A stretch of DNA of 64,000 nt from an uncultured Terriglobales bacterium (lineage in GTDB: Bacteria > Acidobacteriota > Terriglobia > Terriglobales > Acidobacteriaceae), in contig CAYWSH010000002.1 in assembly GCA_964460655.1 (NCBI GenBank), positions 1,377 through 65,376 of the forward strand. Reading direction: 5' to 3'. A program made the position numbers and the translations under genes. A model generated the notes under the pieces. That model was not told the origin of the DNA and ran no database searches. It saw nothing but the letters and a program-made list of their open reading frames with translations. Positions 6,446 through 54,502 of the stretch are shown in pieces (position 1 is the first letter of the stretch; the number at the start of each line of letters is the position of its first letter).

Positions 6446-6465
6446 AGCTGTGCGGCGTGGCCTTC

Positions 6466-8828: not shown

Positions 8829-8933
8829 CTCGCGGCGGGTTTGGGGGATAGTGGAACTCCTTATATCACAACTCTTTGGCGGTGATGCAGCGAAAATCAG
8901 CCCCGTCGGGCCGTGCAGTCGCTTGTCAGTCAA

Positions 8934-34086: not shown

Positions 34087-34868
34087 GCGGGCTTGGGCGC
34101 GGCTTGCGCGCGCCGCTCGCGGCGTTTGCCCATCCACTCCAGGTAGCGCACCGACAGCTTGCCCTTGAGCGTGATGCCGTGCAGCGAGTAATACGAATCG
34201 ACCACCACGCCGCCGAACTCTTCCTTCAACGCGTTGATCTGCAGCATGTGCTTGTCGTCCGTGCCGGCGTACCAACCGCCGAAATCCACGGTGGCAATCC
34301 CCGCTGTCTGGAAGGCCTCGATGTCGCGCCAATGCAGAAAACGATTCGCACGTCCCACTGCCTGCCGGAAAGCAGGAGCGGCGGCAGCCCGATGGAGTGA
34401 GGCCGAGTACAGGAGCACAGCGTTGCGGGCGTCGTTGTAGTAGGCGTGCCAGACCGCTGGTGCGCCTTCGATCTGCGCGTAGCTGACCGTGAGCAGGTTC
34501 GCCTCGGCCATGCCGCGCAGCCAGCCACGGTCCGCGGGGCGGAGCTGGATGGCGCGGCCGGCATCGTCATAGAAATCACAGAAACGCTCGACCTCACCCC
34601 TTGCTTCTGTGCCGCTGAAGCGCTGGTCGGTGACGCCGTCCTTTTGCGCCCGCCGCACCGAATAGCGGACTTCCTTGTCCGTCTTCTCCAGCAGCTCGGC
34701 TGCCGGTCGCGTCATGTCGAGGGCAAGCGAATGCCGGTTCGTACGCTGCCAGCCCGGCGATGACGCCGGCCACGCGTTGTAACGCACCACGTCGGCCCTG
34801 CCGGGCGCGAAGGTCTCGCCGCAGAAGACATCGGCGATGAGCACACCCTGCTTGCGCGAGAGGAACAT
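34083..34868 (-). CDS. FemAB/GNAT-like protein (PEP-CTERM-system-associated FemAB-related family)
   Basis: 261 aa. Acetyltransf_6/FemAB-like segments (..LLYSASL.., ..ANRFLHWRDIE.., FDFGG-like VDFGGW). Its stop overlaps the convergent asnB-like stop. The family call is based partly on context. Confidence 0.6.
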   Translation of the reverse strand: MFLSRKQGVLIADVFCGETFAPGRADVVRYNAWPASSPGWQRTNRHSLALDMTRPAAELLEKTDKEVRYSVRRAQKDGVTDQRFSGTEARGEVERFCDFYDDAGRAIQLRPADRGWLRGMAEANLLTVSYAQIEGAPAVWHAYYNDARNAVLLYSASLHRAAAAPAFRQAVGRANRFLHWRDIEAFQTAGIATVDFGGWYAGTDDKHMLQINALKEEFGGVVVDSYYSLHGITLKGKLSVRYLEWMGKRRERRAQAAPKPA

Positions 34869-35953: not shown

Positions 35954-37474
35954 TCAGGGGCGCAATTCGACCACGTAGGTGTCTTTTGTGTTGCGTGCCG
36001 CAGTGCCCGCCCAGTTCGAGCCGAAGATGATCTTCGTCAGGTCACGATTCGGCGCGGCGTGCGGCTCGTCCCAGTACTCGCGCCGCACGCTGTGGTGGTG
36101 CGCGATGCGCCTCACCTCGCCGGAGCCGTCGAGCTTTACGGCGAAGATCTCGTCCGCCAGTGTATGCAAATGGGTGTCACCCGTCGCGCCACTTTCGTGG
36201 TAGGTGGACATCAGGAGCCAACCCTTGGCATCCCTCGCGCGCATGGAAACATGCCAGCCGTTGCCGTGGAAACTCTCGGGCAAAACGGCCTTCACGACGC
36301 TCATGTCACGGAAGCGCGTGGCAAAGATGGTGTTGTAGTCGGCGTGCTGCGACTGATGCGCCTGGTTGACGAAGACCTCGCTGCCGTCGGCGAGCCACCC
36401 CGAATCGCTGTGCGTGTCGTAGGGAGCATCGGCGGCGCGCCGCATGTTGCGATAGTCCACGTCAAAGAACTCCGTTCCCCAGTGCTCCGGCGACTGGTCC
36501 GGACGCAGGGCCCACTGCACGTAAACGTACTTGCCGCTGGGTGAGATGCAGTTGGCGAGCGGGACTTTTACCTGGGGTGAGCGCAGGATCGGCATGTCGC
36601 CGCTCTGCGCGGCCACATTCCGCACGCCGAGGACGGTGTTGGAGGGGATGTCGTAGGTGAAGATGCCGTAGACGATGCCCTGGCCGTCGAGGATGGTGAA
36701 GGCGCCGCGGCGATTGTCGTCGGAGTAGTTGCAGTAGTCGCGCATCTTGATCTTCTTGTGCGCGAGCGCGATGCCGTCGAACGGGCTGTTCTCGGCGAAT
36801 TCGTGCACCGTTCGGCTCTGATCGCGGCGCACAGAATAGACCTTCAGAGCGGTGTCGCACGTGTACCAGATCGTATCGGCGTCGATATTGTCCCAGTGCG
36901 GGTTCGGATCGGAGCCGTCGTAGCAAAAGACGTCGCGGCCGAGCTTGCGCACGTACCGATAGCTGTTTCCGTCGTAGAGGTGAAGGAATCCGTTGCCGGC
37001 CTGGAGAAACAAGAGGGAGCCGTCAGCGTTCCAAGCTTGCAGCGGCGAGTAGACAGGTACGACGCCCCAGCCAGTGTCTTCGCCCGCGGGTAGAGGCAAA
37101 CGCTTCACCAGGGTATGAAAAGTCGGATCGCGATACACGTTCGCTGCATCGCCCGTGAAAGGTGGCAGCGCGGCAACCGGGGGCATGCTCAGTAGCTCAC
37201 AGTCGTCGCGTGCAGCGACGCGTCGACAAGTGCGCAGGTGCGCGAGTTGTGCGGGGACAGCCGTTCCGGGGACGGTCTGTGGAGCTTCGTACAGGCCGGT
37301 GGCGCGCGCCCGTAGCATGATGGCAGCACGCCGTCCCCAGCGCGTGCTCCGCAATCCCCATGTGGCCAGCAACAGCAGCAAGAGCGCGGCGACGACAACG
37401 GCGCTACGCCGCGCACCGCCGGTGAAGCGCCGTTCGTGCCCGTGCACTATCCTTGTGTCGGGCTCCAGCGTCAT
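35954..37474 (-). CDS. Membrane-anchored protein with an unassigned roughly 420-aa domain shared with the C-terminus of the giant lipoprotein
   Basis: ORF 35954..37546 trimmed to MTLEPD.. (ATG 37474..37472 forms ATGA with the methyltransferase stop). One TM (AVVVAALLLLLLATWGL). It shares C-x8-C, Y-x-DP-x-F, LQAWNADGS, RRIAHH and EPHA.PNRD.TKI.FGS.W with 42138..43487. Confidence 0.7.
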   Translation of the reverse strand: MTLEPDTRIVHGHERRFTGGARRSAVVVAALLLLLLATWGLRSTRWGRRAAIMLRARATGLYEAPQTVPGTAVPAQLAHLRTCRRVAARDDCELLSMPPVAALPPFTGDAANVYRDPTFHTLVKRLPLPAGEDTGWGVVPVYSPLQAWNADGSLLFLQAGNGFLHLYDGNSYRYVRKLGRDVFCYDGSDPNPHWDNIDADTIWYTCDTALKVYSVRRDQSRTVHEFAENSPFDGIALAHKKIKMRDYCNYSDDNRRGAFTILDGQGIVYGIFTYDIPSNTVLGVRNVAAQSGDMPILRSPQVKVPLANCISPSGKYVYVQWALRPDQSPEHWGTEFFDVDYRNMRRAADAPYDTHSDSGWLADGSEVFVNQAHQSQHADYNTIFATRFRDMSVVKAVLPESFHGNGWHVSMRARDAKGWLLMSTYHESGATGDTHLHTLADEIFAVKLDGSGEVRRIAHHHSVRREYWDEPHAAPNRDLTKIIFGSNWAGTAARNTKDTYVVELRP

Positions 37475-38214
37475 GGCTTTTCCAGGATGGCGATGATGTT
37501 CGGCCGCAGATGCCGCAGACGTTTGCTGCTCAAGGCACGGATCCACATCAGTTCCAAGACTGGCGCAAAGGGAATCACCACGAGTTCGGCAGTCGACCTT
37601 ATCAGTCGCACTTCCTGGACGGCAAAGCCCGACGTGGCGGCAACCTGGCGGATCTGCGCCTCTGTGTTCGCCCGATAGTGCGTCAGGAAAACGTCGTGCG
37701 CTTCGCGCGCGTTGATGACTCTGACGATCTTCTTCTTCAAGCCTTCAGGGGTCAGACTAGCCAGCTGCGTGGAGTACCCCGAGGTGTTCGGTGTGTGAAA
37801 AATGAATCTGCCGCCGGGTTTTAGGACGCGCAACACCTCGCGGAACTGCACCTCCGGCTGGTCGAGGTGTTCGACCACCATGTTCGCCGTGGCCAGGTCG
37901 AAGGTGTTGTCGCGGAAGGGCAACTCCTCGAGTTTGCCGGCCACACGCCGGGCGATGGTCTTGTGCCAGGAGAGGGCTTGCTCCACTGGATCGAGACCCA
38001 CGACCATGTGGGCGCGCCGCGTGAGCTCGGCTTCATCCTGCGCGCGGTTCGCTTCGAACAGTTGATGTCCGCAGCCGAGGTCGACCCAGGTCGCGCCCTT
38101 CGGTACTTCGCGCAGCAGCGTGTCGGCGTACTCATCGGCGGCGAATCTCAGGCCCGGCACGAGCAAGGCTTCTATCGGCCGGTAGACCGCCCACATGAAT
38201 CGTCGGTATCTCAT
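37471..38214 (-). CDS. Class I SAM-dependent methyltransferase
   Basis: VDLGCGHQLF (motif I), FDLATANMVVEHL, LKPGGRFIFHTPN. Confidence 0.85.
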   Translation of the reverse strand: MRYRRFMWAVYRPIEALLVPGLRFAADEYADTLLREVPKGATWVDLGCGHQLFEANRAQDEAELTRRAHMVVGLDPVEQALSWHKTIARRVAGKLEELPFRDNTFDLATANMVVEHLDQPEVQFREVLRVLKPGGRFIFHTPNTSGYSTQLASLTPEGLKKKIVRVINAREAHDVFLTHYRANTEAQIRQVAATSGFAVQEVRLIRSTAELVVIPFAPVLELMWIRALSSKRLRHLRPNIIAILEKP

Positions 38215-39479: not shown

Positions 39480-41519
39480 ATGACCGCGATGTGCAAGGTC
39501 CGCTGGATCACCCTGTTTCTCATGCTCGAGGCGCTGCCGCTGTGGGCCGCGCCACCGCACGTCTTGTTTATTGACCTCGACTCCGGCCCGAAAACCGGCG
39601 GTGAGCATAATCAGGGCGTCTACGTCACCATCTTCGGGAAGCGCTTCGGCGCGGCGCCCCAGGTCACAATCGGGGGCGGCGAAGTGGCCCGGATCGTCGC
39701 CCATTGTGAGGCCTGCTCCAACGCGCAACTCGGACCTGCGCCCAGCGACCGGATGGACGTCGTCGTGGTCGAGCTTGGGGCGCGCGTCGCTACGGGCGAC
39801 GTTGTAGTCACCACTCCTGACGGCCAGAGCAGTGGCGGCCCAACATTCACGGTGCGGCCGGGCAGGGTCTTCTGCGTCAGTCCTGCCGGCAAAGACGCCG
39901 CGTCACATGGGACGTTCGCCGCTGGCTGCTGGCAATCGGTGATCTTCGCCCGCAACGCGATCGCGCCCGGCGATACGGTCTATGTGCGGGCGGGTGTGCT
40001 CACTACGGGCCGAGACCCCACGCAGGCCGAGGCCTGGTGCGCGGCGCTCGTCATCGGCAAAGATGCCGGCGATGCGGGTACGGCGGGAAATCCAAAGGCG
40101 CTGGTGGCGTACCCAGGCGAAACGGTCACCATCGGCGACACCAGCGGCTCGTTCGATCCCAATGGGCGATTGCTTCGGCCGCGGCAGACGTGCGCGCAAG
40201 TGACCGCGCCGCTCTCACAGAGCGGCAAGGCCGGCAGCATCAAGCGTACGAGCGGCCTTACGCGCGTCCGCATCGCCGGCACCGACTTCCACGCTTCGCT
40301 GCGGGGCGCGCGTGTCGGCGCGTGGGTCAGCGTCACCGGCACGCGGAACTACAACCGCGTTCTCCGTATCCGTTCTCTCACGCTCGACTGCATGGGCTCG
40401 GGGCGCGATGCCGACCACTGCTGGAAGGACGACCTCACGCTTCTGGACCCGGGCGATGACCTGCCGGAAGAAACCACGGCAACGCTCGGCGTGGTGAGCG
40501 TGTACGACACCGGCATTCGCAGCAAAGGAGGGTCGGACTACTGGACCATCGCCGGCTTCCAGGTGCGCGGCGTCACCGACGCGATCAACTGGAAGGGCGC
40601 ACACACGCGCCTCATCAACCTCGATCTCTCAGCTCCCGGCGGAGACAATGAGGCCGCCTGCCAGGATGGCGCCGGCGATATCGACGATCTCAAGTGGTAC
40701 GGCGTCAAGGTCCACGACTGCGGTATCGCACGCAGTTCGACGGCGAAGTTCTTTCACCAGGTCTACTGGTGTTGCGGCAATAACCACGGCATCGACCAGG
40801 GGTGGTTCGAGATCGGCGGGAACAACTGGGGTTGTAGCGGCATCCAGGACAATGCTTCGGCGAGTCACGCCACCGCCGATTACGACTGGCAGATCCACGA
40901 TGGCTATCTGCATGACAATCGTTGCGCCGCCATCGCGCTGCAGACCGTTGATCCCGCGAAGGGCGCGGTCCGGCTCTGGAACCTCATCATTCAGCGCAGC
41001 GGCATCGGGCCGTCACCGATCGACGGCGGCGGTTCGTACAGCTGTATCCGAGCCAACCAGGTCGCGCCCGGGCAGGGCACGACCTCGGGCAACATCGAGA
41101 TCTACAACAGCACCTTTCAGGATTGCGGTGCGCTCGATATTCACCAGCGCGGCACGCGTGGCATCATCACGAACGATGGTCGCGTAGCTGCGATCGGCAT
41201 AACGGCGTCGAACCTGCTTGTTCTCCAGCCTGTGGGCCAGCCTTATCTGGAGAGCGCCGGCCCAATCACCGTCACCCACAGTCATTGCTTCGGCAACGGC
41301 GAGTGTCCCGGGGATTGGCAGAACAGTTCCTCCGGGGATCCCAACTTGGCTGATAGGTCGGGCAAGGTCGATTTTCACCTTACCAGCGCGAGCCCTTTGT
41401 CCGTGCAAGACAGCGGACAAGCAACCTCGGCAAAGGTTGATCTTGATGGCGTGAACCGGCCGCAGCGTTCGGCCCACTCCCGTGGTGCTTACGAGCTGCC
41501 GGCCCGGAAGAAGGAGTGA
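39480..41519 (+). CDS. Secreted IPT/TIG-like + right-handed parallel beta-helix protein (paralogue of giant lipoprotein residues ~1286-1939)
   Basis: Signal peptide (..EALPLWA|AP). DLDSGPKTGGEHN..VTIFG (IPT-like). Repetitive beta-helix-type segments (KGGSDYWTIAGF, KFFHQVYW, GWFEIGGNNWGC, HDGYLHDNRC). An alternative start exists at 39489. Confidence 0.75.
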   Translation: MTAMCKVRWITLFLMLEALPLWAAPPHVLFIDLDSGPKTGGEHNQGVYVTIFGKRFGAAPQVTIGGGEVARIVAHCEACSNAQLGPAPSDRMDVVVVELGARVATGDVVVTTPDGQSSGGPTFTVRPGRVFCVSPAGKDAASHGTFAAGCWQSVIFARNAIAPGDTVYVRAGVLTTGRDPTQAEAWCAALVIGKDAGDAGTAGNPKALVAYPGETVTIGDTSGSFDPNGRLLRPRQTCAQVTAPLSQSGKAGSIKRTSGLTRVRIAGTDFHASLRGARVGAWVSVTGTRNYNRVLRIRSLTLDCMGSGRDADHCWKDDLTLLDPGDDLPEETTATLGVVSVYDTGIRSKGGSDYWTIAGFQVRGVTDAINWKGAHTRLINLDLSAPGGDNEAACQDGAGDIDDLKWYGVKVHDCGIARSSTAKFFHQVYWCCGNNHGIDQGWFEIGGNNWGCSGIQDNASASHATADYDWQIHDGYLHDNRCAAIALQTVDPAKGAVRLWNLIIQRSGIGPSPIDGGGSYSCIRANQVAPGQGTTSGNIEIYNSTFQDCGALDIHQRGTRGIITNDGRVAAIGITASNLLVLQPVGQPYLESAGPITVTHSHCFGNGECPGDWQNSSSGDPNLADRSGKVDFHLTSASPLSVQDSGQATSAKVDLDGVNRPQRSAHSRGAYELPARKKE

Positions 41520-41522: not shown

Positions 41523-42125
41523 CTAAGCGCCTGGCCGATTGCTATAGATATGCCAATCGAGCGTGTGGGCACTGCCCCCAGCGATCTCCGTAAGCAAGCC
41601 CCCCTCTTCAATCGAGGCTCGCACATGCTCGGCGTTGACCACCACGAGCCAACGTTCTTCCCCATCGCGCATCAAGGCTTTGATGTTCCCGATCACCTGC
41701 TTGGCGACGGCGCCGCGAAACGGATTGAAGAGGAAGATCACCCTGACGTCTGCCGGGAGGGGGTAATCCGCGGCGTCGGCACAGACGACCTCGATGTTCT
41801 TCTTTCCGGCTGTAACGTGGCGACAGTACGCCGCCAGCCTTTCCGATAATTCCACTCCGATCACGCGGTGAAATCCAAAGCGCGCGGCGACCAGCAGCGC
41901 ACGGCCCTTGCCGCAACCGATATCTAGAAAGCCCTTGCGACGCAGCTCTGGCGGGAAGCGGCGCATCAGGTCATGCAAGAGCCAATACGGGGTCGCAGGG
42001 TAGGGCCGGGCGTCGGGCCCGGTGCCAAGTTCTTCGGTAGTCAGGGTGCCGCCGGTCTCGGCGTGGTAGCGCCAGTCATTCACGCGCTCAGCTAAGTTTC
42101 GCGCCTTGCGGGCCAGGTAATTCAT
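41523..42125 (-). CDS. Class I SAM-dependent methyltransferase
   Basis: FLDIGCGKGRALLVAARFG (motif I), VIGVELS, VIFLFNPF. It lies 9 nt downstream of the giant gene on the same strand. Confidence 0.8.
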   Translation of the reverse strand: MNYLARKARNLAERVNDWRYHAETGGTLTTEELGTGPDARPYPATPYWLLHDLMRRFPPELRRKGFLDIGCGKGRALLVAARFGFHRVIGVELSERLAAYCRHVTAGKKNIEVVCADAADYPLPADVRVIFLFNPFRGAVAKQVIGNIKALMRDGEERWLVVVNAEHVRASIEEGGLLTEIAGGSAHTLDWHIYSNRPGA

Positions 42126-42134: not shown

Positions 42135-45100
42135 CTACGGCAGCTCGATGACGTAAGCGAAGTGCGAATCAGGATTCGCACCCGCGCTCGTTCTCCATGT
42201 GGATCCGAACACGATCTTCGTGCAATCGCGATTCGGTGTTGCATGGGGTTCCGCGAATGAATCGGTCACGATCGATTGGTGGTGCGCGATGCGCCGGAAT
42301 TCATTGCTGCCGTCGAGCTTCGCGGCGAAGATCTCGTCCTGCATCGGCTGCGCCGCGCTAGGATCGGGATTGCTGCCATTCGGCGGGCTCGTGAAGGACG
42401 ACATGATCGCCCAGCCACGCAACTGCTGGCAGCGCATCGACGCGCTCATCGCGCCGCCGTTGAACGAACCGTTCGGCCGCACCGAGTTCACCATGCTGAG
42501 GTCGTTGAAGCGCACGGCGTTCAGCGTGCGATCGTCATCGGGCACTGCCTGGTTGATCTGGGCCACGAACGCTTCGCTACCGTCGCCCAGGAAGCCGACG
42601 TCGAGCGTGCCTGAGTGGTCGCCGTTGCCCGCCTGCCGCTTGCCCGTGAAGTTGTTGTTGAAGACCTGATAGCCGTGGAAGGTCGGCGACTGCGCCAGCG
42701 ACAGGTTCCAATCGATCACTATGTTGTTGCCGCTGGGCGACATGCACACGGCAGCGGGCACTCCGCCTTGCGGCGAGCCCGGGACCTGCGTATCGCCGCC
42801 TTGCTGGAAGTTCATCGCGCCCAGGATGCTGTCGGTCCCGATATCGTAGGCCGCCACACCGATGATGTTCCCCGCCCCCGGAGCGACGATGCGGAACGCC
42901 ACGCGGTTATTGTTCGAGGAGAAGTCGCAGTTGTCTCCCATGCGCAGCTTGTTATTGGTCATGGCGATGCCGTCGATGGTGAGCGGGCAGAAATCTTTGA
43001 CCAGCGTAGAGCGGTCGGTCCCCACGTGATACTGCAGCAGCTTGCAGCCGCTGGTGTACCAGATAACGTCGGGATCGCCGTTGTCCCACTTGAAGGCCGA
43101 TTCGCTGTCGTAGCTGACGCCGGGATTGGCGGTGCTGCCGTTGTTGTTCGCCACCGAGCGGAACAGGGTGTACGCGGTCCCGCTGAAGATGTGGATCGTC
43201 CCCGTGGCCGCGCTCAGCATCAGCTTGCTGCCGTCAGCGTTCCACGCCTGCACGCTCGAGTGCGCCGGTACCAGGCCCACGCCGACTTGCCCGATCAGGG
43301 TCTGCGGGATGGAAATACGACGGATCCTGGTGCTGAACACCGGGTCGGTGTAGATCGTTGCGGCTGTGCCATCGAACAGCGGTGGATTGAGGTCCGGCGG
43401 ACTATTCAAGGTGGTGCAGTTGTCCGTCGCGCCATTGCGCTGACACACGATGAGCGACTGGAACTGCGACGGCGTGGACGAAGGCTGCGGTCCCACGCTG
43501 ATGGTCATGGTCCGAGTCGCCGCTTGCGGCGTCGTCGGACTCCCGTCGTTCACCTGGTAATTGGCGGTAAAGATCCCGCTCGCGGTCGGCGTGCCGGTGA
43601 GGATGCCTCCGCTCGACAGGTTGACGCCCGGAGGCAGGGAACCGGCGCCGATCGACCACGTGTACGGCGGGGTGCCGCCGCTCGCACTGAGCGACGCGTT
43701 GTAGGCCGCTCCGGTAGTGGCGCCCGGCAGGCTCGTTGTGTTGATGGTGAGGAGCGGCGGCGGTGAAGCGACGCTGACGGTGATGGGTATTGCCAGCACC
43801 GTGCTTTGTTGCGCCTGCGCCGCAGAATCGCGCGCCTGCACCGTGAAGTTGAAGCCGCCCGTCGTGGTCGGCACGCCGGTGATCGCACCCGTCGTCCCAT
43901 TCAGGCTCAGGCCCGGCGGCAACGCACCCAGCACGATGGTCCAGGTGTACGGCGGAGCCCCGCCGGCGGCGACCAGACTGGTTGCGTAGTTCGCGCCCAC
44001 GATGCCAGTCGGAAGTGAAGTCGTGGTGATCCGCAGCAGCGACGACTGGACGCTCAAGCCCAGCGTGCTCGTTACGCTGGCCCCGACTGCGTCGGTCACT
44101 TTGAACTGCAACGTAAAGAAGCCGGTGACGTTCGGCGTGCCGGAGAGCACGCCGTTATTGGCGCCCAGGCTCAGCCCGCCCGGCAGCGCCGTGAGCGCCG
44201 TCCAGGTGTAGGGCGAAGTGCCGCCGGTGGCGGTCAGAGTGGTGCTGTACAGCGCATTCAGCTGCGCGTTCGGCAGGAAGCTGGTCGCGATGGCGAGCGT
44301 CGGCGGCAATACTTGGATACTCAAGACGCCGCTTTGCTGCGCCTGGCCGGTGGCATCCACTACGCGCAGCGCGAAAGAATACGTTCCGGCGATCGACGGT
44401 ATGCCGCTCAGCACGCCGCTCGTGGACAACGTGATGCCCGGGGGCAGGCTGCCGCTCAACAGTGACCAGGTGAACGGCGCCGTTCCGCCATTGGCGGCGA
44501 GCGTGACCGAATACGTGCTGCCGATGCTCGTGTTCGGCAGGGTGGCCGTGGTGCTGGTGGCGCCCGAGGGTATCAGTTCGTAGGCGCCCATCGAGTTGGT
44601 AGTGCCCTGCGGGCGTGGCAGGCCGTCATGGTCAAAGCTGACGGCAGCATTGAAACCGCTGGTGACGATGGCGGCTGGCGTGGAAGACGTTAGGTGCAGG
44701 TCGCTGTAGCCGGTGTTGTCCTGCAATTGCGGATCGAGGCTGATGGTGCTCGTCCACGTGAGCGGACACGCCCCGGTAACGCCGTTCGTACCGCCGGTAC
44801 AGTTGCTGAACGAGCCTGTGACGACGCCGAGACCATCAACGTACTTCTCGCCGGAAGTGTTGACGATGACGGTGTCCCGCACGTCGATGCTGATGGCGGG
44901 CCGCGCATTGCCGTTGTCGATGGCGCCGCGCGAGTTCGAGCCGCCAAGTGTTTCTCTGCCGCAATCGATCAGCGTGTTGTTGAAGGTTTGGATCGCGCCC
45001 GATGCGCCGGGCGTGGTCGCAGCCGCGATGTTGTTGGCCTCGATACAGGCATAGACGCCGCCACCATCCACCGGCGTCGGCCCCATGCCGGCGCGCTGCA

Positions 45101-48100
45101 CGATCATGTTGTAGAACTTCGCCGGCCCTTGCGACGGGTCCATGGAAGCGAAATCGACCGCGCTGCAGCGATTGTCGTGGATATAGCCGTCGTGGAAGGC
45201 CCAATCGACATCGGCGCCGTGGCTCTGGCCGTTGCCTTGAATGCCGTGGCAGCCCCAGTTGTTGCCGCCGATCTCGAACCACCCCATGTCGATACCGCGG
45301 TTATCGCCGTTCGACCAATACACCTGGTGGAAGAACTTCACCGTCGATTCGCGCGAGATCCCGGAATCGTGGATCCTGATGCCGTACACCTTGATGCCGT
45401 TGATGGTCGTACCATCGAGCGTGGCAGCTTCAAAATCACCACCCGGCGCGGACATGTCGACGTTAACGATGCGGCCGCCCGCTCCCGACCAATCCATCGC
45501 CGCCTGCGTGCCGCGTGCGTTCAGGTTCGCGAACGTCCAGTAGTCCGATCCGCCCTTACTCTTGATGCCATTTATATACAGCTGCTTGACCTGGATGTTG
45601 CCCGACGCTTCGGCCGCAAGGTTCGCTCCGGGATCGGTCAAGGTGAAGCGGTTCAAGGCGCAATGATCGGCATCGATGCACGTCGGGGTGACGCTGGCGA
45701 TCTGCAAGATGCGGTTGTAGTTCGTGGTGCTGGTGATCTGGACCCAGGTGCCGACTTTCACGCCGCGCAATGCTCCGCCGAAGTTCGTCGGCGTGGTGGC
45801 CACTTGCACCGCCGTAACGTTGTTGGAGCGCTGGATCGATAGGATCGGCTGACCGGGAGGGTTCTCCAGGTAGCAGCCGGTGGTGGCAGTCGGCTGTCCG
45901 CCAGACGTGTCGCCGATGGTCGGCATCTCGCCCGGGTAACCCACCAAGGCCTTAGGACTGCCCGGCGAACCCGAGCCGCCGGCGAACGAGCCGATCACCA
46001 AGGTCGCGCAGAAACCAGCGTTCTGCGTGGTGTCGGAACCATTCGTCGTGACGTTGCCGCGGATGTAAACGGTGTCGCCGGCCGCGATGTTGTCGCGCGC
46101 AAAGATGACCGTCTTCCAGCATCCGGCAGAGAACGTGCCGTGGCTAGCGGTATCCAGGCCGCTCGCCGAGACGCAATCGATGTTTCCGCTGCGCACCGTG
46201 AACTGCGGGCCGTTGCTGCTACTGACGCCGCCCACCGTGACCTTGACCTCACCCGAAGCGACCGCAGCCCCCAACTCGACGACGATTACGTCCATCTTGT
46301 CGGGCGAAGCAGGGCCGAGTTGCGCGTTAGAGCATGCCTGGCACCAGGAGACGTAGTTCACCACCTGGCCGCCGCCGATGGTCACGGTTGAAGTGCCGCG
46401 CGTCGCGCCAAAGTTGCGGCCAAAGATGGTCACGTAGACGCCGTTGTTGTGCTCGCCACCAGTCTTCGGGCCCGAATCCAGGTCGGTGAAGAACACGACC
46501 GGAGGCAGCGTCGTAACGCTTGCGCCGGCAATACGCAGGGGCGCGGGCGAGATGGTGATTGGCAGGGTCACCGACTGCGTCTGCACGGGCGTGCTGTTGT
46601 CGGCGACACGCAGACCCACGGTGAAAGTCCCGCTCGCCGTGGGCGTGCCCGAGATGGTGCCGTTGCTGGCCAGCGACAGGCCGCCGGGCAGCGCGCCGGA
46701 AAGGACCGTCCACGTCCGGGGCGTCGTCCCACCCGAAGAACTCAACACGAAGTTGTAAGCGACACCGATGGCGCCCGACGGCAAGGCGTTCGTAGCGATG
46801 GTCAAGCCCGACGCGATGACGGTGATGTTCAGGTTGGCCGTAGCGAACTGCTGCGTGGTAGCGCTGTCGGCGACGCGCACCGTGAAACTGCTGGTCCCTC
46901 CGGTTGACGGTGTGCCGCTGATGGCGCCACTGGTCGACATGCTCAGGCCCGCCGGAAGCGCGCCGCCCGAGATCGTGAACGTATAGGGGACGGTTCCGCC
47001 GGCCGCCGCCACGGTCGCGCTGTACGGCGAGCCGACGCTGCCCGGGCCGAGGTTGATGGTGGTGATGGTGACGGCCGCGGGTGCGATCGTGATGTTAAGC
47101 GTGGTGACCGTCTGCTGTGCTGCAGCGTCGGTCACGCGGATGCCGACGCTCGTTGCCCCCGGCACAGTCGGCACACCGGTCACGCTGCCGTTCGTCGCCA
47201 ACGCCAGGCCGTTCGGCAGGGAGCCCGCTGCGATCGTCCAGGTGTAAGGAGCGGTCCCACCGGAAGCTGCCACTACGGTCGTGTAGGCCGCGCCTACCTG
47301 TCCGGCCGGCAGCGAAATGGTAGTGATGACGAGCGGCGCCGGCACGATCACGATACTCAGGTTGACGCTCGCTGAGCCTGCGCTCCCGTCCGTCACGCGC
47401 GCCGTGATGTTCGCTGTGCCGGCCGCGGTCGGTGTACCTGTGATGTCGCCCGTGCTGGTGTTGAGCGTGAGGCCGGCGGGCAGCGTACCGGAGGTAAGCG
47501 CCCACGTATAAGGCGCAGTTCCGCCCGAAGCGAGCAGCGTGGTTGCGTAGGCAGTGCCCACCGTACCGCCAGGCAGAGCGACGCTCGTCACAAAGACAGG
47601 CTGCGCCGCAGCGGTGATCGTGATACTGAACGCGCGCGTCGTGGTCTGCGCAGTAGGCGTACCTTGGTCGGTCACGCGCAACGTGAAGTTGCTCGTGCCG
47701 GCGACACTGGGCGTGCCGGAGATGCTTCCGCTGGCAGCCAGGTTGAGGCCGGTGGGCAAGGTGCCGCTGGCGATCGTCCAGGTGTAACTGCCGGTCCCAC
47801 CCGTTGCTGCCAGAGCCGCCAGATAGTTAGATCCAGAGCCGCCGCCCGGTAACGTCGTCGTCGTGATGGTCAGCGGCGCCGGAGCGATGGTGATGGAGAG
47901 TGAAGCGGTGAGCGCCGTCAGGTTCGCAGCATCACGCACCTGTGCGACAAACGACGACGTGCCAGGTGTCGTCGGCGTGCCCGAAAGCGTGCCCGTGGGC
48001 GATAGTGAGACGCCCGCCGGCAATGCGCCGGTCGAGACGGTCCAAGTGTACGGAGTCGTGCCTCCGCTGGCAGCGAGCGAAGCGCTATACGCTGTGCCCG

Positions 48101-50390
48101 CCGTTCCGCCGGCCAGTGACGTCGTAGTGGCGACGAGCGGAGCGGGCGTGATGCTGATGGCGAGCGTGACGGTGCGCTGTTGGGTCGAAGCGTCCTGTAC
48201 CTGGAACGTCGCGGTCGCGGTTCCGGCGGCGGTCGGCGTTCCTGAGAGACCACCTGTTGCGGCATTCAGTACCACGCCTGCGGGCAGGGTGCCGGCGATC
48301 ACCGACCAGCTGAACGGTGCTGAGCCCCCCGTTGCCGCCAGCGTCGCACTGTAGGACGTTCCGACCGTGCCTCCGAGAAGGGAAGACGTTGTGATGTTGA
48401 GCGCCGCCGGAGCGATCGTGATAGTGAGCGAACCCGTCGCGGTCTGGCTGGCGCTGTCGCTCACGCGCACGGTAAACGCTGATGTCCCGATTGTCGTCGG
48501 CGTTCCGCCGATCCCGCCGGTGACGGCGTTGAGCGCCAAGCCTGCTGGCAGGTTGCCCGAAGTGAGCGCCCAATTGTAGGGCGGCGTTCCACCCGCGGCG
48601 ACCAGCTGAGTGCTGTAGACCACGCCTACGGCGCCACCGGCGAGCGAGGTGGTGCTAACGATCAGGCCGGGCGCTGATACTGCGATGGTGAGCGTGACGC
48701 GCTGCGATTGGGCGCCTCCGTCTGCCACCTGCACGACGACAGTGAAGTTACCTGCCGCTGTCGGTGTGCCTGTGAGAGCGCCGGTCGTTGCATTCAGGCT
48801 GATGCCCGGCGGCAACGCACCGGTGAGGATGCTCCAGGCGTAAGGCTGCGTGCCGCCGTTGGCCGTCAGGCTTCCGCTATAAGCGGATCCGACCGCGCCA
48901 TTGGGCAGTGAAGCAGTCTGGATCACCAGCGGCGCTGCTGCCACACTGATGCTGAGCGACGACGATGTCCTGGTTTGCGCATTCGAGTCCACCACTCTGA
49001 CGGTGAACGTGAAAGTACCGGGCGACGAGGGAGCGCCGGTGATGGCGCCGGTGGCGGCGCCGAGCGTCAGGCCTGGCGGCAACGCGCCACTCGCCACGTT
49101 CCAGGTGTAGGGCAACGTCCCGCCGGTGGCGTTCATGACGGCGGTATACGGCACGCCGACGCCTCCGCCCGGGAGCACGGGTGGCTGCAAGACCAATGCC
49201 TGCGCGCCGATCGTGATGCTGTAGGTGACGGTGCGCAGTTGCAGCCCGGCATCGTGCACCTGCACCGTGACGGAAGACGTGCCGGCAGTAGTAGGAACGC
49301 CGCTGATGGTGCCGTCCGCCGCGAGGCTCAGACCATTCGGCAGTGATCCGCCTACGACGCTCCACGTCAGCGGGGCCAGCCCGCCTTGCGCGATCAACTG
49401 GGTGCTGTACTGAGTGCCCACGCTGCCCGACGGCAACGGATTAGTCGTGGTAACGGTCAACGGACCGGAGCCGATGCTGATGGTGAGCGAGACCGTCTGC
49501 GAAGCGCTCGCGCTATCGGTGACGCGCGCGAGGAACGATGAGCTTCCCGTCTGTGACGGTGTTCCCACGATGTCGCCCGTCGCGTTCAGGACCAGGCCGG
49601 CGGGCAGGCTTCCCGAGCTGAGTGACCAGTTGTAGGGAGTCGTGCCTCCTGTGGCGGTCAGCGTGGCGGTGTAGCCGAGTTGCACGGTGCCGTTCGGCAC
49701 CTGAGTGGTTGTGATGGCGAGGGGATGGGTGCCCGCGCCCGAACTTTGCGCGATGTTCATCGTGATGCTGGGCGATTGCGCGGTGACGTTGTTGGCGTCG
49801 CGCACTTCGATCACGAAGGTGTAGTTGCCGGGCGTCGTCGGATTCCCGCTGATGGCCCCCGTCGTCGAGTCCAGGAACAGACCCGGCGGCAGCGCGCCGG
49901 AAGCGACGCGGAAGAAGAATGGGGCGGTGCCGCCCGTGACGGAGATCCCCGCCGAATACGTTGAACCTTGCGTCCCTGCAGGCACGCTGGAAGTGGAGAT
50001 CGTGGGCGATGCGCTCTGGCTCACCGTGAGCGCCATGCTGTTCGAAACAGCTCCAGTGCTTACTTCTCTGACCGTGATCGTTCCAGTGCCCGTGGCCGCA
50101 ATATCGCTGCCGAGGATCGTCCCCTTGATCTGCGACGAATTGACGAACGTCGTGCTGCGCGCCGCGCCGTTGTAACGGACTTCAGACTGCGTGGTAAACC
50201 CGGTGCCGTTTACGGTCAGGAGGAAAGTTTGGCCGCCAGCGGCCACGGTCGATGGGCTCAGGCTGGTAACTGTCGGCGGGCTGGAGGTCAGGGCGCTCTT
50301 CGTTGCTGTGCTCGTGCTGCCGCCATTTCCACAGCCTGTGACAAAGGACACGAGGGGCAATACGAACGCCAGAATGAGTAGCTTGCGCAT
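42135..50390 (-). CDS. Giant (2751 aa) mosaic surface lipoprotein: IPT, 13 Ig-like repeats, IPT + beta-helix module, 4 Ig-like repeats, unassigned C-terminal domain
   Basis: Single uninterrupted ORF with lipobox LVSFVTG|C (Cys20). The domain order was read directly from the translation. See the repeat features and findings for module boundaries. Confidence 0.85.
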   Translation of the reverse strand: MRKLLILAFVLPLVSFVTGCGNGGSTSTATKSALTSSPPTVTSLSPSTVAAGGQTFLLTVNGTGFTTQSEVRYNGAARSTTFVNSSQIKGTILGSDIAATGTGTITVREVSTGAVSNSMALTVSQSASPTISTSSVPAGTQGSTYSAGISVTGGTAPFFFRVASGALPPGLFLDSTTGAISGNPTTPGNYTFVIEVRDANNVTAQSPSITMNIAQSSGAGTHPLAITTTQVPNGTVQLGYTATLTATGGTTPYNWSLSSGSLPAGLVLNATGDIVGTPSQTGSSSFLARVTDSASASQTVSLTISIGSGPLTVTTTNPLPSGSVGTQYSTQLIAQGGLAPLTWSVVGGSLPNGLSLAADGTISGVPTTAGTSSVTVQVHDAGLQLRTVTYSITIGAQALVLQPPVLPGGGVGVPYTAVMNATGGTLPYTWNVASGALPPGLTLGAATGAITGAPSSPGTFTFTVRVVDSNAQTRTSSSLSISVAAAPLVIQTASLPNGAVGSAYSGSLTANGGTQPYAWSILTGALPPGISLNATTGALTGTPTAAGNFTVVVQVADGGAQSQRVTLTIAVSAPGLIVSTTSLAGGAVGVVYSTQLVAAGGTPPYNWALTSGNLPAGLALNAVTGGIGGTPTTIGTSAFTVRVSDSASQTATGSLTITIAPAALNITTSSLLGGTVGTSYSATLAATGGSAPFSWSVIAGTLPAGVVLNAATGGLSGTPTAAGTATATFQVQDASTQQRTVTLAISITPAPLVATTTSLAGGTAGTAYSASLAASGGTTPYTWTVSTGALPAGVSLSPTGTLSGTPTTPGTSSFVAQVRDAANLTALTASLSITIAPAPLTITTTTLPGGGSGSNYLAALAATGGTGSYTWTIASGTLPTGLNLAASGSISGTPSVAGTSNFTLRVTDQGTPTAQTTTRAFSITITAAAQPVFVTSVALPGGTVGTAYATTLLASGGTAPYTWALTSGTLPAGLTLNTSTGDITGTPTAAGTANITARVTDGSAGSASVNLSIVIVPAPLVITTISLPAGQVGAAYTTVVAASGGTAPYTWTIAAGSLPNGLALATNGSVTGVPTVPGATSVGIRVTDAAAQQTVTTLNITIAPAAVTITTINLGPGSVGSPYSATVAAAGGTVPYTFTISGGALPAGLSMSTSGAISGTPSTGGTSSFTVRVADSATTQQFATANLNITVIASGLTIATNALPSGAIGVAYNFVLSSSGGTTPRTWTVLSGALPGGLSLASNGTISGTPTASGTFTVGLRVADNSTPVQTQSVTLPITISPAPLRIAGASVTTLPPVVFFTDLDSGPKTGGEHNNGVYVTIFGRNFGATRGTSTVTIGGGQVVNYVSWCQACSNAQLGPASPDKMDVIVVELGAAVASGEVKVTVGGVSSSNGPQFTVRSGNIDCVSASGLDTASHGTFSAGCWKTVIFARDNIAAGDTVYIRGNVTTNGSDTTQNAGFCATLVIGSFAGGSGSPGSPKALVGYPGEMPTIGDTSGGQPTATTGCYLENPPGQPILSIQRSNNVTAVQVATTPTNFGGALRGVKVGTWVQITSTTNYNRILQIASVTPTCIDADHCALNRFTLTDPGANLAAEASGNIQVKQLYINGIKSKGGSDYWTFANLNARGTQAAMDWSGAGGRIVNVDMSAPGGDFEAATLDGTTINGIKVYGIRIHDSGISRESTVKFFHQVYWSNGDNRGIDMGWFEIGGNNWGCHGIQGNGQSHGADVDWAFHDGYIHDNRCSAVDFASMDPSQGPAKFYNMIVQRAGMGPTPVDGGGVYACIEANNIAAATTPGASGAIQTFNNTLIDCGRETLGGSNSRGAIDNGNARPAISIDVRDTVIVNTSGEKYVDGLGVVTGSFSNCTGGTNGVTGACPLTWTSTISLDPQLQDNTGYSDLHLTSSTPAAIVTSGFNAAVSFDHDGLPRPQGTTNSMGAYELIPSGATSTTATLPNTSIGSTYSVTLAANGGTAPFTWSLLSGSLPPGITLSTSGVLSGIPSIAGTYSFALRVVDATGQAQQSGVLSIQVLPPTLAIATSFLPNAQLNALYSTTLTATGGTSPYTWTALTALPGGLSLGANNGVLSGTPNVTGFFTLQFKVTDAVGASVTSTLGLSVQSSLLRITTTSLPTGIVGANYATSLVAAGGAPPYTWTIVLGALPPGLSLNGTTGAITGVPTTTGGFNFTVQARDSAAQAQQSTVLAIPITVSVASPPPLLTINTTSLPGATTGAAYNASLSASGGTPPYTWSIGAGSLPPGVNLSSGGILTGTPTASGIFTANYQVNDGSPTTPQAATRTMTISVGPQPSSTPSQFQSLIVCQRNGATDNCTTLNSPPDLNPPLFDGTAATIYTDPVFSTRIRRISIPQTLIGQVGVGLVPAHSSVQAWNADGSKLMLSAATGTIHIFSGTAYTLFRSVANNNGSTANPGVSYDSESAFKWDNGDPDVIWYTSGCKLLQYHVGTDRSTLVKDFCPLTIDGIAMTNNKLRMGDNCDFSSNNNRVAFRIVAPGAGNIIGVAAYDIGTDSILGAMNFQQGGDTQVPGSPQGGVPAAVCMSPSGNNIVIDWNLSLAQSPTFHGYQVFNNNFTGKRQAGNGDHSGTLDVGFLGDGSEAFVAQINQAVPDDDRTLNAVRFNDLSMVNSVRPNGSFNGGAMSASMRCQQLRGWAIMSSFTSPPNGSNPDPSAAQPMQDEIFAAKLDGSNEFRRIAHHQSIVTDSFAEPHATPNRDCTKIVFGSTWRTSAGANPDSHFAYVIELP
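43497..44558 (-). repeat. 4 further tandem Ig-like (He_PIG-type) coding repeats
   Basis: The same motif occurs four times between aa ~1945 and ~2298 (SGSLPPGITL.., TALPGGLSL.., LGALPPGLSL.., AGSLPPGVNL..). Confidence 0.8.
46536..50006 (-). repeat. 13 tandem coding repeats (~85-90 aa each) of He_PIG/dystroglycan-cadherin-like 'putative Ig' type
   Basis: Each unit carries G-x-LP-x-G-[LVI]-x-[LM]-(4-6)-G-x-[ILV]-[STG]-G-x-P-(3)-G and ..Y...L.A.GG..P[YF].[WF]. I counted 13 occurrences between aa ~129 and ~1285. The copies are diverged at the DNA level. Confidence 0.8.
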
Positions 50391-51288: not shown

Positions 51289-51805
51289 TCACAAAGGCGG
51301 TTCATACGCACCGAGTGAAGTGCCCGTACCCGGGCGGCTTTTGCCATCCAGATCAGTCGTTGCCCCCGTCGCGTGTCCGCTCGACTTCGCTGCCGCAGGG
51401 CTGGCACTCGTGAAATGAAGGTCGCCGAAACGGGCATTGTCAACGAAGACCGGATCGAGGCTGAGGGAGCTGCTCCAGCCCGCCGGGCACGCGCCGTTGC
51501 CGTAGCAATCGGTAAAGCTCATCGAGACGGGGCCGTAGGGGTTATCGAGGTAGGGCTGGCCCGCGGGTTGGACCGCGAGGTTGTTGTAGCCCACGACATG
51601 CACCGCGCTGTAGGCGCCATCATTGACGACGATGCCCCGTGTGCCGCCATAGCCGATGTTGAACGCACCACTGTCCTGGAACGTGTTGTTGTACAACTCG
51701 ACCGTACCCGAAGGGCTGCCGGAGGCAACGGTGGTTCCATTGCTTGCGCACGCAGGCATATTCGCCCCCGCCATCGATCGGCGACGGACCCTTGCCTGGT
51801 TCCAA
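51289..51805 (-). pseudogene. 5'-truncated, frameshifted remnant of a beta-helix paralogue (C-terminal ~170 codons only)
   Basis: Frame of ORF 51620..51805 reads GKGPSPIDGGGEYAC (compare GIGPSPIDGGGSYSC in 39480..41519). Homology then continues in the frame of ORF 51289..51864 (YNNTFQD.GA, GTRGI, QPAGQPYL, DLHFTSASP, DLDGKSRP, GAYE). The frame switch is near 51745..51755. No homology is seen upstream of about 51800. Confidence 0.7.
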
Positions 51806-52030
51806 GTTTTCTCATGATGGGTTAGCTTTGGGCGAGGTGGCGTTGTCCGGGAGCTTGGGATCACGTGCCGGTTACGACCAGATTGGGGCGCGCAGCACGC
51901 GCGGCGAATCCGGCAAAAGGCGCACTGGGCGCAGCTTTTCCTCCTAGCGCGTGCGAATTTGGGGCTAGTCGAAAGTAACCGTGGTCATACGGCCCATGCG
52001 CCGGGAATAGAATCCGAGGGCGGGGAGAAC

Positions 52031-52978: not shown

Positions 52979-54502
52979 GTGCCAGAGCCACACTCATCAT
53001 CGTCGAATAACGCTGCGACGTCGCTCAGCGTCCTCGTTCCCGTTTACAACGAGCAGTTCCTGGTGGCCGCGAGTCTCACGCGGTTGAAGACGCTCGCGGC
53101 CTCGTCGCTGCTCGAGCGCATCCAGGTCATCGTGGTGGACGACTGCTCGCGCGATGAGACGCCCGTCGCGCTCGCCCGCTTCCGCGCGTCCGTCGAAGAG
53201 ACGCCGTTGCGCAAGGTCGAATGGGAATTCCATCGCCACGAACGCAATCAGGGCAAAGGCGGCGCCGTCCGCACAGCGATCGAGCGGGCGGAGTGCGAAC
53301 TTACCGTTATCCACGACGCCGACCTCGAATATCACCCGGCGGACTTGCTGAAAATGGTCCCACTCTTCCTGGAGGAAGGCGCCGACGCCGTGTTCGGCTC
53401 GCGCTTCCTCGCCGGCGAGTTCCGGCGCACGCTTTTCTTCAAGCACGAGCTCGGCAACAAGCTGCTGACGTTCCTGTGCGACCTGGCGTGCGACCTCAAC
53501 CTCTCCGACATGGAGACTTGTTACAAGATGGTTCGCACCGATCTGTTGCGCTCCATCCCACTCGTCAGCCGCGACTTCCGCATCGAGCCGGAGCTCACCA
53601 TCAAGCTGGCGAAGCGTGGCGCGCGCGTGTATGAGGTGCCGATCCGCTACAGCGGCCGCACGTATCAGGAAGGGAAGAAAATCCGCTGGACCGACGGTGT
53701 CAAGGCGTTGGGCGCCATCCTGCGGTTCCGGCTATCCGACCGCATCTTCAAGCCCGATCAGTACGGCTCCGAGCTTTCGCCGCGCCTGGCGCGTGCGCCG
53801 CGCTACACCGGTTGGCTGGCTGATGTCGTACGTCCGCATCTTGGCCAGCATGTGCTCGAGCTCGGCGCGGGCGTCGGGCATCTGACGCTCTCGCTGGTCC
53901 CGCGCACCGAGTACTGCGTCGCCGATCCGAATCCGCTGTTCGTGCGCGAGCTGCGCAAACTCGATGACACGCGCCCGTACCTGCGCGCCGAGCAGCTCGA
54001 TCCCGCCGCCGTGCAGCAGATCGCGCCGCCGGGATCGTTCGATACGGTCCTGTTGCAGAACGTGCTCGAGCACGTAGAAGACGATGCGGCAGTGATGCAG
54101 CGTGTGTTCGCTGTGCTGCAGCCCGGTGGGCGCACCGTCGTGCTCCTGCCGAAAGGGAAGCACCTTTTCGGTTCGCTCGATCGCGTCCTCGGCCATCGTC
54201 GGCGCTACACGCGCGCCGACGTGGCACGACTGGCGGGAGCTGCTGGATTCCGCGTGTTGAGCATTCGCGGCTTCAATCGCACGGGCTCGCTCGGTTGGTG
54301 GACGAACGCGCGCCTGCTCCGCCGCAAGACCTTCGGTCTGCTGCAGATCAAGCTGCTGAACCTGCTCGTGCCGTTGTTGCGGCGGCTGGAGTGGTTGCCG
54401 CTTCCGCCTTTGACGCTCTTGGCTGTGCTGGAGAAGCCGGTCGGTTCAGCGAAGCCTGCGGAGACGGTGCAACCCGCTACGACTGGTTCTCTGTTCGGGT
54501 GA
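52979..54502 (+). CDS. GT2 glycosyltransferase fused to a class I SAM-dependent methyltransferase
   Basis: N-half: LSVLVPVYNE, VVDDCSRDET, HDADLEY (DxD). C-half: VLELGAGVGHL, FDTVLLQNVLEHVEDD, LQPGGRTVVLLP. Confidence 0.8.
   Translation: MPEPHSSSSNNAATSLSVLVPVYNEQFLVAASLTRLKTLAASSLLERIQVIVVDDCSRDETPVALARFRASVEETPLRKVEWEFHRHERNQGKGGAVRTAIERAECELTVIHDADLEYHPADLLKMVPLFLEEGADAVFGSRFLAGEFRRTLFFKHELGNKLLTFLCDLACDLNLSDMETCYKMVRTDLLRSIPLVSRDFRIEPELTIKLAKRGARVYEVPIRYSGRTYQEGKKIRWTDGVKALGAILRFRLSDRIFKPDQYGSELSPRLARAPRYTGWLADVVRPHLGQHVLELGAGVGHLTLSLVPRTEYCVADPNPLFVRELRKLDDTRPYLRAEQLDPAAVQQIAPPGSFDTVLLQNVLEHVEDDAAVMQRVFAVLQPGGRTVVLLPKGKHLFGSLDRVLGHRRRYTRADVARLAGAAGFRVLSIRGFNRTGSLGWWTNARLLRRKTFGLLQIKLLNLLVPLLRRLEWLPLPPLTLLAVLEKPVGSAKPAETVQPATTGSLFG

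Follow-up and report, generated by a model that had tools for sequence, protein, structure and literature searches.

A giant predicted lipoprotein of an exosortase-linked exopolysaccharide locus combines diverged copies of two neighbouring proteins, one of them a distant relative of PL22 lyases

We analysed a window of 64,000 nucleotides (nt) of DNA from an uncultured Terriglobales bacterium (assembly GCA_964460655.1, contig CAYWSH010000002.1, positions 1,377 to 65,376). Profile searches of the window proteins identify it as an exopolysaccharide (EPS) cluster linked to an XrtA-type exosortase. One of its genes, at 42135..50390 on the reverse strand, encodes a giant predicted lipoprotein in which diverged copies of two proteins encoded nearby are carried on 17 immunoglobulin (Ig)-like repeats. 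The first copy, module A, has a beta-helix fold; the second, module B, is a beta-propeller related to the polysaccharide lyases of family PL22. The conserved site of this propeller is intact in the stand-alone neighbour, whereas it is partly dismantled in the fused copy. The reading we prefer, tentatively and at slightly under even confidence, is that of an envelope-anchored lipoprotein that arose by duplications within the locus and trims and/or tethers the cell's own EPS, module B being more likely to bind the polymer than to cleave it.

The giant gene is one unbroken reading frame of 2,751 codons, yielding 2,751 amino acids (aa), and its G+C content at third codon positions (GC3, 0.81) is like that of the neighbouring genes of the window. 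From N- to C-terminus, the product is composed of a lipobox with Cys20, a TIG domain, 13 He_PIG repeats, module A, four He_PIG repeats and module B (Table 1). This order had been read from the translation in a first-pass annotation of the window, and Pfam, a motif scan and BLASTP all bear it out. The N-terminus, MRKLLILAFVLPLVSFVTG-C20, matches the pattern [LVI][ASTVI][GAS]C in a by-eye reading of the translation; as a pattern match this agrees with the lipobox proposed in that annotation, and we predict that the protein is a bacterial lipoprotein. Pfam locates the TIG domain (PF01833) at aa 39-121, with 27.2 bits against a cut-off of 20.9, and He_PIG (PF05345) in 17 stretches, with 594.6 bits against a cut-off of 24 (E=5.4e-183), in line with the two blocks of 13 and four Ig-like repeats noted earlier. 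Repeat boundaries were set by the motif scan, with one repeat (aa 838-925, 'GGTGSYTW') placed by eye. A PEP-CTERM signal, made up of a PEP motif, a transmembrane helix and a basic tail, was sought at the C-terminus and not found; the protein ends in …HFAYVIELP, the conserved terminus of the propeller, so that no such signal is present.

Pairwise identity among the He_PIG repeats averages 45% in protein (maximum 56%) and 59% in DNA (maximum 66%). No exact repeat in the gene is longer than 18 nt, and Tandem Repeats Finder (TRF) detects no tandem array in it. Because the repeats have diverged to this extent and exact repeats are so short, collapse or expansion of the repeats during assembly is unlikely.

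Both modules have a stand-alone counterpart in the window. Module A (aligned stretch aa 1269-1939) aligns by BLASTP with the entire 679-aa product of 39480..41519(+) over 691 columns, with 50% identity and E=0. Module B (aligned stretch aa 2304-2750) aligns with residues 95-528 of the open reading frame (ORF) 35954..37546(-) over 453 columns, with 40% identity and E=1e-103; the annotated start of this paralogue is the ATG at 37474 and not the upstream GTG. The colinearity of both pairs, claimed in the first-pass annotation, is therefore backed by significant alignments, and all the shared strings quoted there between the modules and the neighbour proteins are present.

The AlphaFold2 (AF2) model of module B is a seven-bladed beta-propeller, with a predicted local distance difference test score (pLDDT) of 82 and a predicted template modelling score (pTM) of 0.88. 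Its best match in Foldseek is the PL22 oligogalacturonate lyase 3c5m (E=4.6e-15, TMt 0.67), and the next matches, WD40 proteins at 1.6e-11, lie nearly four orders of magnitude behind. Neither module B nor its paralogue matches the PL22 model PF14583 at E<=10, or any other Pfam family; searches of NCBIfam and of the PDB sequences with module B gave no matches, and the profile of its family, hereafter family B, reaches PDB 3pe7 at E=0.037 only. Alignment of profiles with hhalign scores family B against PL22 at 96.2%. With a 145-sequence profile, the N-terminal half scores 97.6% (E=4e-12) and the C-terminal half alone 94.3% (E=1e-7). The PL22 reference consisted of five full-length bacterial and archaeal genes from plasmid records, among which a Rahnella sequence carries the numbering of YeOGL. 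Module B is a remote homologue of the PL22 lyases at the superfamily level.

The alignment of the C-terminal half pairs His354 of family B with PL22 His287, the AHH motif with His338, Glu419-Pro-His421 with His353-Pro-His355, and the YVxELP motif with YLxEIP, while that of the N-terminal half pairs Tyr82 with Tyr37. The aligned PL22 residues are invariant across the five bacterial and archaeal sequences. We take His287, Gln350, His353 and His355 to be the Mn2+ ligands of YeOGL, and His242 is presumably the catalytic base of PL22. In the columns of PL22 His287, His353 and His355, the family-B consensus and the stand-alone paralogue both have His/Glu/His, whereas the fused copy has Ser2649/Glu2714/His2716. 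Near the column of His242, the 'DG[ST]' blade motif shared with PL22 is preceded in family B by His300 (His2592 in the fused copy), which lies 5-8 columns off register in a region that is not significantly aligned.

Six residues of family B, namely Tyr82, His300, His354, Tyr416, Glu419 and His421, vanish together in about 10% of 139 full-length family-B representatives, and the complete set of His300, His354, Glu419 and His421 is found in 113 of the 139. Their joint loss suggests that the six residues form a single functional site. At 11 key positions the stand-alone paralogue has no changes and the fused copy has five. Ser2649 (nt 42444-42446) stands in place of His354, a position occupied by His in 130 of 148 family representatives (88%); His2377 (nt 43260-43262) replaces Tyr82, Ser2711 (nt 42258-42260) replaces Tyr416, Phe2744 replaces Asp449 and Asn2493 replaces Asp198. 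The fused copy keeps His2592, Arg2700, Glu2714 and His2716. A family-B hidden Markov model (HMM) built without the window copies gives 319 bits to the paralogue and 271 bits to the fused copy. These changes make it probable that ancestral catalysis has been lost or altered in fused module B while the fold was kept. Given the loss of the His equivalent to PL22 His287 and of two conserved Tyr, module B more likely grips a polymer, and we consider that it probably binds rather than cleaves. A loss of His300 as well, suggested by MAFFT and a first HMM that placed Thr2595 at this position, was rejected, as a second HMM places His2592 there, which fits a three-residue indel.

Family B has neither a Pfam nor an NCBIfam model. 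An exhaustive profile search retrieved 5,332 cluster representatives at E<=1e-3, of which 1,578 pass E<=1e-30. We sampled 80 genomic loci of the family, and in 38 of them polysaccharide genes are found nearby: glycosyltransferases of family GT4, NAD-epimerase, AsnB, DegT, Poly_export, NTP-transferase and Bac_transf, with the epimerase and exporter genes typically directly adjoining the family-B gene. These 38 loci belong to Alphaproteobacteria, Flavobacteriia, Myxococcota, Gammaproteobacteria, Acidobacteriota and Paenibacillus. Multi-domain members carry PKD, fn3, Big or cadherin domains, or type IX secretion system (T9SS) or dockerin domains; now and then the partner is GH114, a beta-sandwich of glucuronyl C5-epimerase type or a beta-helix.

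The family is also present in viruses, with members on six IMG/VR contigs. In the 305-kb genome of the Xanthomonas jumbo phage LucasX (vB_XciM_LucasX, MW825358.1, locus L093), gp246 (213340..216858) is a 1,172-aa 'hypothetical protein' with a family-B propeller at aa 338-763 (HMM E=1.4e-52), in which the conserved site is complete. Its gene adjoins one for a 'gene transfer agent host specificity protein', and gp246 may be a tail-associated depolymerase. A contig of phage-like character (L094, ENA ERZ27314131, k141_707817) encodes another family-B protein (P0004) among small unannotated genes; it also has genes for a holin of gene transfer agent (GTA) type and a portal protein of SU10 type.

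In module A, a TIG-like domain (~aa 1297-1400) is followed by a right-handed parallel beta-helix, and a choice-of-anchor-Q motif stands at the C-terminus. The first and last of these are the sole matches in Pfam and NCBIfam searches (TIG, E=2e-4; NF041518, 28.3 bits against a cut-off of 25), and a PDB sequence search with the module returned no matches. The AF2 model shows the right-handed beta-helix with a pLDDT of 82. Within the helix lies an apparent insert of ~105 aa (aa 1499-1603, nt 45582..45896), which is common to both full-length window copies of the module A family (family A) and is modelled with a pLDDT below 50. Foldseek ranks the GH136 lacto-N-biosidase LnbX (5gqc, 1.2e-6) and the PL9 enzyme Pel9A (1ru4, 1.3e-6, TMt 0.64) at the top, together with GH28 proteins and the PL9 rhamnogalacturonan lyase 5olr. 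All the best PDB fold matches are carbohydrate-active, and by its predicted fold module A looks like a carbohydrate-active module.

We found 67 relatives in family A, with weak matches to Pel9A-like, Beta_helix, DUF5123 or chondroitinase-B models. Neither window copy matches PF22842 (Pel9A-like_beta_helix) at E<=10; relatives reach 24.2-24.7 bits, against a cut-off of 25.2, over the N-terminal cap only. Across 52 family members, conserved Arg, His, Tyr, Trp, Gln and His-Asp residues are kept in both window copies, and in module A they include Arg1640, His1688, Tyr1691, Gln1718 and His1733-Asp1734. Four of the five relatives whose contexts were looked up lie in Wzx/Wzy-type loci, beside glycosyltransferases of family GT2, Polysacc_deac_1, flippase or DUF218 genes. 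In the window itself, a third copy of family A is left as a truncated relic (51289..51864), with 48% identity to the 679-aa paralogue and 37% to fused module A, which indicates that the family has been duplicated repeatedly in this locus. The relic abuts a divergently transcribed epimerase gene.

In two family-A contexts (L091, L092), a trio of a GT2 gene (Glyco_transf_21-like), Polysacc_deac_1 and a Pel9A-like beta-helix recurs, and another beta-helix paralogue is encoded within a few kb of it; this set of synthase, deacetylase and glycanase resembles the poly-N-acetylglucosamine (PNAG) and Pel systems. The fifth relative whose context was looked up (P0055, 1,001 aa) is the closest full-length one to module A other than its paralogue and also carries fn3 and Big_7 domains; its gene stands between ftsA and ftsZ, within a cell-division cluster (L087 10001..13006, GCA_964456235.1; L088), an odd place for a beta-helix protein.

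The first-pass annotation argued from the fusion, by Rosetta-stone logic, that the two modules probably act on one substrate. Families A and B are each separately tied to polysaccharide biosynthesis loci. Among the best 150 family-B representatives we found an 884-aa protein with a lipobox-like N-terminus (P0369), in which the propeller precedes the beta-helix, the reverse of the order in the window, and which matches the family-A HMM at E=5e-44. A second protein from the same set (P0333) holds the start of this arrangement, with only the beginning of the helix. Such independent fusions of propeller and beta-helix lend modest support to a common substrate of the two module types. A further family-B protein (P0003) is a complete 606-aa combination of He_PIG and propeller. 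Apart from the window's own protein, the match lists of the two modules have no protein in common.

From these observations we propose the following scheme. An old duplication within the locus would have copied two accessory polysaccharide-processing proteins of the EPS cluster, a secreted TIG and right-handed beta-helix protein of family A and a membrane-anchored seven-bladed propeller of family B, which is distantly related to PL22 and had no name before, and both copies would have been strung on the 17 diverged He_PIG domains of the giant gene. The acylated N-terminus would hold the protein on a membrane. Assuming ~4 nm per domain, the 14 Ig-like domains formed by TIG and the first 13 He_PIG repeats would place the beta-helix module ~50 nm off this membrane, and the four further repeats would bring the propeller to the tip. 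Since the beta-helix module keeps all polar residues conserved in its family, it is probably still active on the EPS of its own cell, which it would cut or modify as a glycanase or lyase, much like WceF, PslG or AlgL, each of them encoded in the operon for the EPS concerned. The propeller at the tip would grip the EPS polymer and is probably non-catalytic, a binding module being the simplest reading of a fold that is kept and a site that is degraded. As a net effect, the EPS layer would be trimmed and/or tethered at the cell surface.

Several points weigh against this scheme. In none of the 80 sampled family-B loci is a family-A gene found within 10 kb, and the exact fusion is a singleton cluster in the public protein collection; in these two respects the Rosetta-stone argument is weakened. 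About half of the 80 loci lie outside recognisable polysaccharide clusters. In fused module B, the retained His2592, Arg2700, Glu2714 and His2716 could belong to a modified active site, while the spatial clustering of the six site residues is deduced from their joint loss and the metal-site roles given to PL22 His287, Gln350, His353 and His355, like that of His242 as base, are general background on these enzymes. Catalysis by module A is putative, and both window copies of family A lack seven Asn found in 48-51 of 52 relatives, by which they form a divergent subclade of their own; as a guess, these positions may form an asparagine ladder. For both families, substrate action, binding and localization are predictions from sequence.

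The first-pass annotation had offered two functional readings, a surface-tethered glycan-editing enzyme or an adhesin on an Ig-repeat stalk. Taken as a two-headed EPS depolymerase or editing enzyme with both modules active, the former appears unlikely to us. It draws on the carbohydrate-enzyme folds of both modules, on the full set of conserved polar residues in module A, on the four site residues retained in module B and on the independent fusions of propeller and beta-helix. Both modules do look carbohydrate-active, by fold and by PL22 homology; the C-terminal one, however, is unlikely to be an enzyme of the ancestral type, as it has Ser at the column of PL22 His287, lacks Tyr82 and Tyr416, which are jointly lost in degenerate family members, and falls 48 bits under its paralogue in the family HMM. 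For the tip module these same changes, if anything, strengthen the adhesin. Extended to the whole protein, the adhesin becomes a non-catalytic matrix protein in which both modules bind EPS in the manner of lectins and so cross-link it to the cell; Vibrio RbmC and Bap1 would be functional analogues. The long Ig-like stalk, the lipid anchor and the degenerate site of module B fit such a protein, as does the divergent, Asn-lacking subclade of the window family-A copies, and WceF, a beta-helix protein of Pantoea stewartii, aggregates with its own EPS (PMC7949094). We nevertheless regard it as rather improbable, because the Arg, His, Tyr, Gln and His-Asp residues conserved over 52 members and kept in module A and its paralogue argue for a maintained active site, and because the Asn losses, being common to the secreted stand-alone paralogue, are not specific to the fusion.

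A target other than the cell's own EPS, with the protein serving in nutrition or in attack on the polysaccharides of competitors or hosts, would agree with the many family-B members that are T9SS cargo or carry the dockerin, PKD and Big domains typical of degradative enzymes, with the roughly half of the loci that lack biosynthesis genes and with the phage copies, which target the surfaces of other cells. In the window, however, both source paralogues lie inside the EPS cluster among modification genes, the giant gene is placed between DUF218 and methyltransferase genes, with DUF218 recurring beside a family-A member in a biosynthetic locus (L090), and the neighbourhood has no genes for transport or breakdown of released sugars; action on foreign glycans is thus distinctly unlikely. 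The least probable explanation, to which we give very little credence, is an artefact of assembly or annotation, in which a false fusion would come from a contig that is chimeric or a repeat array that is miscounted. That a single 89-kb contig is apparently the source, and that the protein is a singleton, would agree with it. Against it stand a frame open for 8.25 kb with uniform GC3, the divergence of the repeats described above and the identities of just 50% and 40% to the neighbour genes, which are too low for the fused modules to be mis-joined neighbour copies. We retain the anchored lipoprotein with a probably active beta-helix and a probably binding propeller as our preferred reading.

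It is common for an EPS cluster to include a gene for cleavage or editing of its own polymer, and enzymes of this sort set chain length, release and biofilm mechanics. Family B, linked to PL22 by profile and fold and equipped with a conserved His/Glu/His site, is a candidate new polysaccharide lyase family that is spread over polysaccharide loci of many phyla and over phage genomes. In addition, the intact stand-alone copy and the site-degraded fused copy in one genome constitute a natural experiment on whether an enzyme has become a binding module. We consider these two outcomes, the large unannotated PL22-like family and the pair of intact and degenerate paralogues in one locus, more valuable than the fusion, which is unique but anecdotal, a one-off. 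A wider proposal joins them: family B would be a widespread group of metal-dependent polysaccharide lyases, or of mechanistically related uronate C5-epimerases, that forms an unrecognised component of EPS processing in Wzx/Wzy and exosortase systems and has been borrowed by phages as a depolymerase, and the giant lipoprotein would hold a duplicated, disarmed pseudo-enzyme as a 'hand' that ties EPS to the envelope beside an active beta-helix 'blade'. Taken as a whole, this chain of claims is possible but doubtful.

Table 1. Positions of the giant gene's parts, of the related copies and of the adjoining methyltransferase gene; residues are those of the giant protein
Feature	Residues (aa)	Position (nt)	Strand	Basis or remark
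Lipoprotein signal peptide, lipobox VTG-C	1-20	50331..50390	-	Translation; Cys20 codon 50331-50333
Gly/Ser/Thr-rich tether	21-38		-	Translation
N-terminal IPT/TIG Ig-like domain	39-123	50022..50276	-	Pfam PF01833
He_PIG repeats 1-13	127-1282	46545..50012	-	Pfam PF05345 and motif scan
Module A	1286-1945	44556..46535	-	BLASTP to 39480..41519, AF2, Foldseek
He_PIG repeats 14-17	1942-2300	43491..44567	-	Pfam PF05345 and motif scan
Module B, seven-bladed beta-propeller	2302-2751	42138..43487	-	BLASTP to 35954..37474, AF2, hhalign
Stand-alone module B paralogue, 506 aa (P0001)		35954..37474	-	N-terminal membrane anchor (RRSAVVVAALLLLLLATWGL); conserved site intact
Stand-alone module A paralogue, 679 aa (P0054)		39480..41519	+	Sec-type signal peptide (…LPLWA-AP)
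Third family-A copy, 5'-truncated relic, 191 codons		51289..51864	-	C-terminal ~170 residues, without signal peptide
S-adenosylmethionine (SAM)-dependent methyltransferase		41523..42125	-	Pfam Methyltransf_25/11; start 9 nt past the stop of the giant gene

The EPS-locus setting named in the first-pass annotation is confirmed by the gene content of the window. The exosortase passes the XrtA model TIGR03109 marginally (208.9 bits, cut-off 208), EpsI scores 113 bits (cut-off 42.8), and two PrsT proteins with tetratricopeptide repeats (TPR) score 349 and 387 bits (NCBIfam cut-off 312); the chain-length determinant, ATPase, exporter and amidotransferase fall below their respective equivalog cut-offs. 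Export and regulation are represented by a sigma-54 activator, a polysaccharide exporter, a Wzz-like chain-length determinant, an ATPase and a tyrosine kinase, and synthesis by a priming sugar transferase (Bac_transf), GT2 and GT4 glycosyltransferases, a Wzy-like polymerase and a flippase. Genes for modification encode two AsnB-type amidotransferases, two polysaccharide deacetylases, an acyltransferase-3 and methyltransferases; a DUF218 protein, an epimerase, a dTDP-glucose dehydratase, a UDP-glucose dehydrogenase and an exosortase-dependent surface protein of the XDD4 family are encoded as well. The DUF218 gene lies upstream of the giant gene on the same strand, separated from it by 150 nt, and the methyltransferase gene of Table 1 is probably co-transcribed with the giant gene. 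The stand-alone propeller gene is part of a run of acyltransferase-3, methyltransferase, propeller and polysaccharide deacetylase genes. No tRNA or Rfam elements were found in the window.

At the edge of the cluster, two overlapping ORFs (2214..3329 and 3101..4117, both on the reverse strand) each match profiles of tyrosine recombinases/integrases. They are flanked on one side by a fusion of AMP-binding, acyl carrier protein (ACP) and acyltransferase domains (21..2210) and on the other by the PrsT genes, and this integrase-like pair at 2214..4117 might mark a mobile or recombined boundary. The stretches 4124..8829(-) and 9022..9738(-) hold the tandem genes for the PrsT-type TPR proteins (760 and 787 aa) and the gene for the XDD4-family protein, which adjoins the split exosortase/EpsI gene pair. 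Inside the cluster, three ORFs, 13592..15166(+), 34083..34868(-) and 31410..32105(-), have no Pfam match and a coding-like GC3 of 0.75-0.81; the first two are without an NCBIfam match as well. A fusion of a GT2 glycosyltransferase with a SAM methyltransferase domain is encoded at 52979..54502(+), and an FHA–SpoIIE (PP2C-type) phosphatase at 61284..62954(+), at the distal end of the cluster.

Compared with known systems, the propeller of module B is shared with PL22 (PF14583; YeOGL 3pe7, VPA0088 3c5m), with homology over both halves. Motifs occur in the same order in PL22 and family B: Y.DP..G..[IV].R[IL][ST], the Tyr (37/82), the His (287/354), LA.H, then [HE]-P-H followed by SP.G..[IV].F.S, and the C-terminal Y[LV].E[IL]P. 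In contrast, sequence identity to module B is ~10%, with no match to PF14583; PL22 His353 is Glu in family B, and His287 is Ser in the fused copy. PL22 enzymes are small cytoplasmic proteins of pectin catabolism, whereas family-B proteins show signs of export (a membrane anchor, signal peptide, T9SS domain or lipoprotein fusion) and are often encoded in polysaccharide biosynthesis loci. The best fold matches of module A are PL9 Pel9A (1ru4), BT4170 (5olr) and GH136 LnbX (5gqc), at E ~1e-6. Relative to PL9, whose site we take to consist of a Ca2+-binding Asp cluster and a Lys base, module A has an extra N-terminal TIG domain and the ~105-aa insert.

Proteins that carry enzyme modules on an Ig-like stalk are a known kind, as are enzymes that are encoded in biosynthetic clusters and process the cell's own EPS. 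To the latter belong AlgL, PslG, PelA, BcsZ and PgaB, which follow the same logic, a degrading or modifying enzyme encoded among synthesis and export genes that acts on the nascent or surface polymer. Each of them, however, is a single enzyme, periplasmic or secreted, from an unrelated fold and family, and none is known to be a lipoprotein with several modules on a stalk of Ig repeats. WceF of Pantoea stewartii, like module A, is a right-handed beta-helix protein encoded within an EPS cluster, in this case the Wzx/Wzy-type cluster for stewartan; it is a glycosidase that acts on its own EPS, wceF knock-outs produce longer polymer, and the protein shows lectin-like aggregation with the EPS (PMC7949094). 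WceF differs from the giant lipoprotein in being a single-module, Tat-exported trimer with a tailspike-like fold, without an Ig stalk, lipid anchor or second module, and it lies outside the top 50 Foldseek matches of module A. WceF is the closest functional precedent for the scheme proposed for the giant lipoprotein.

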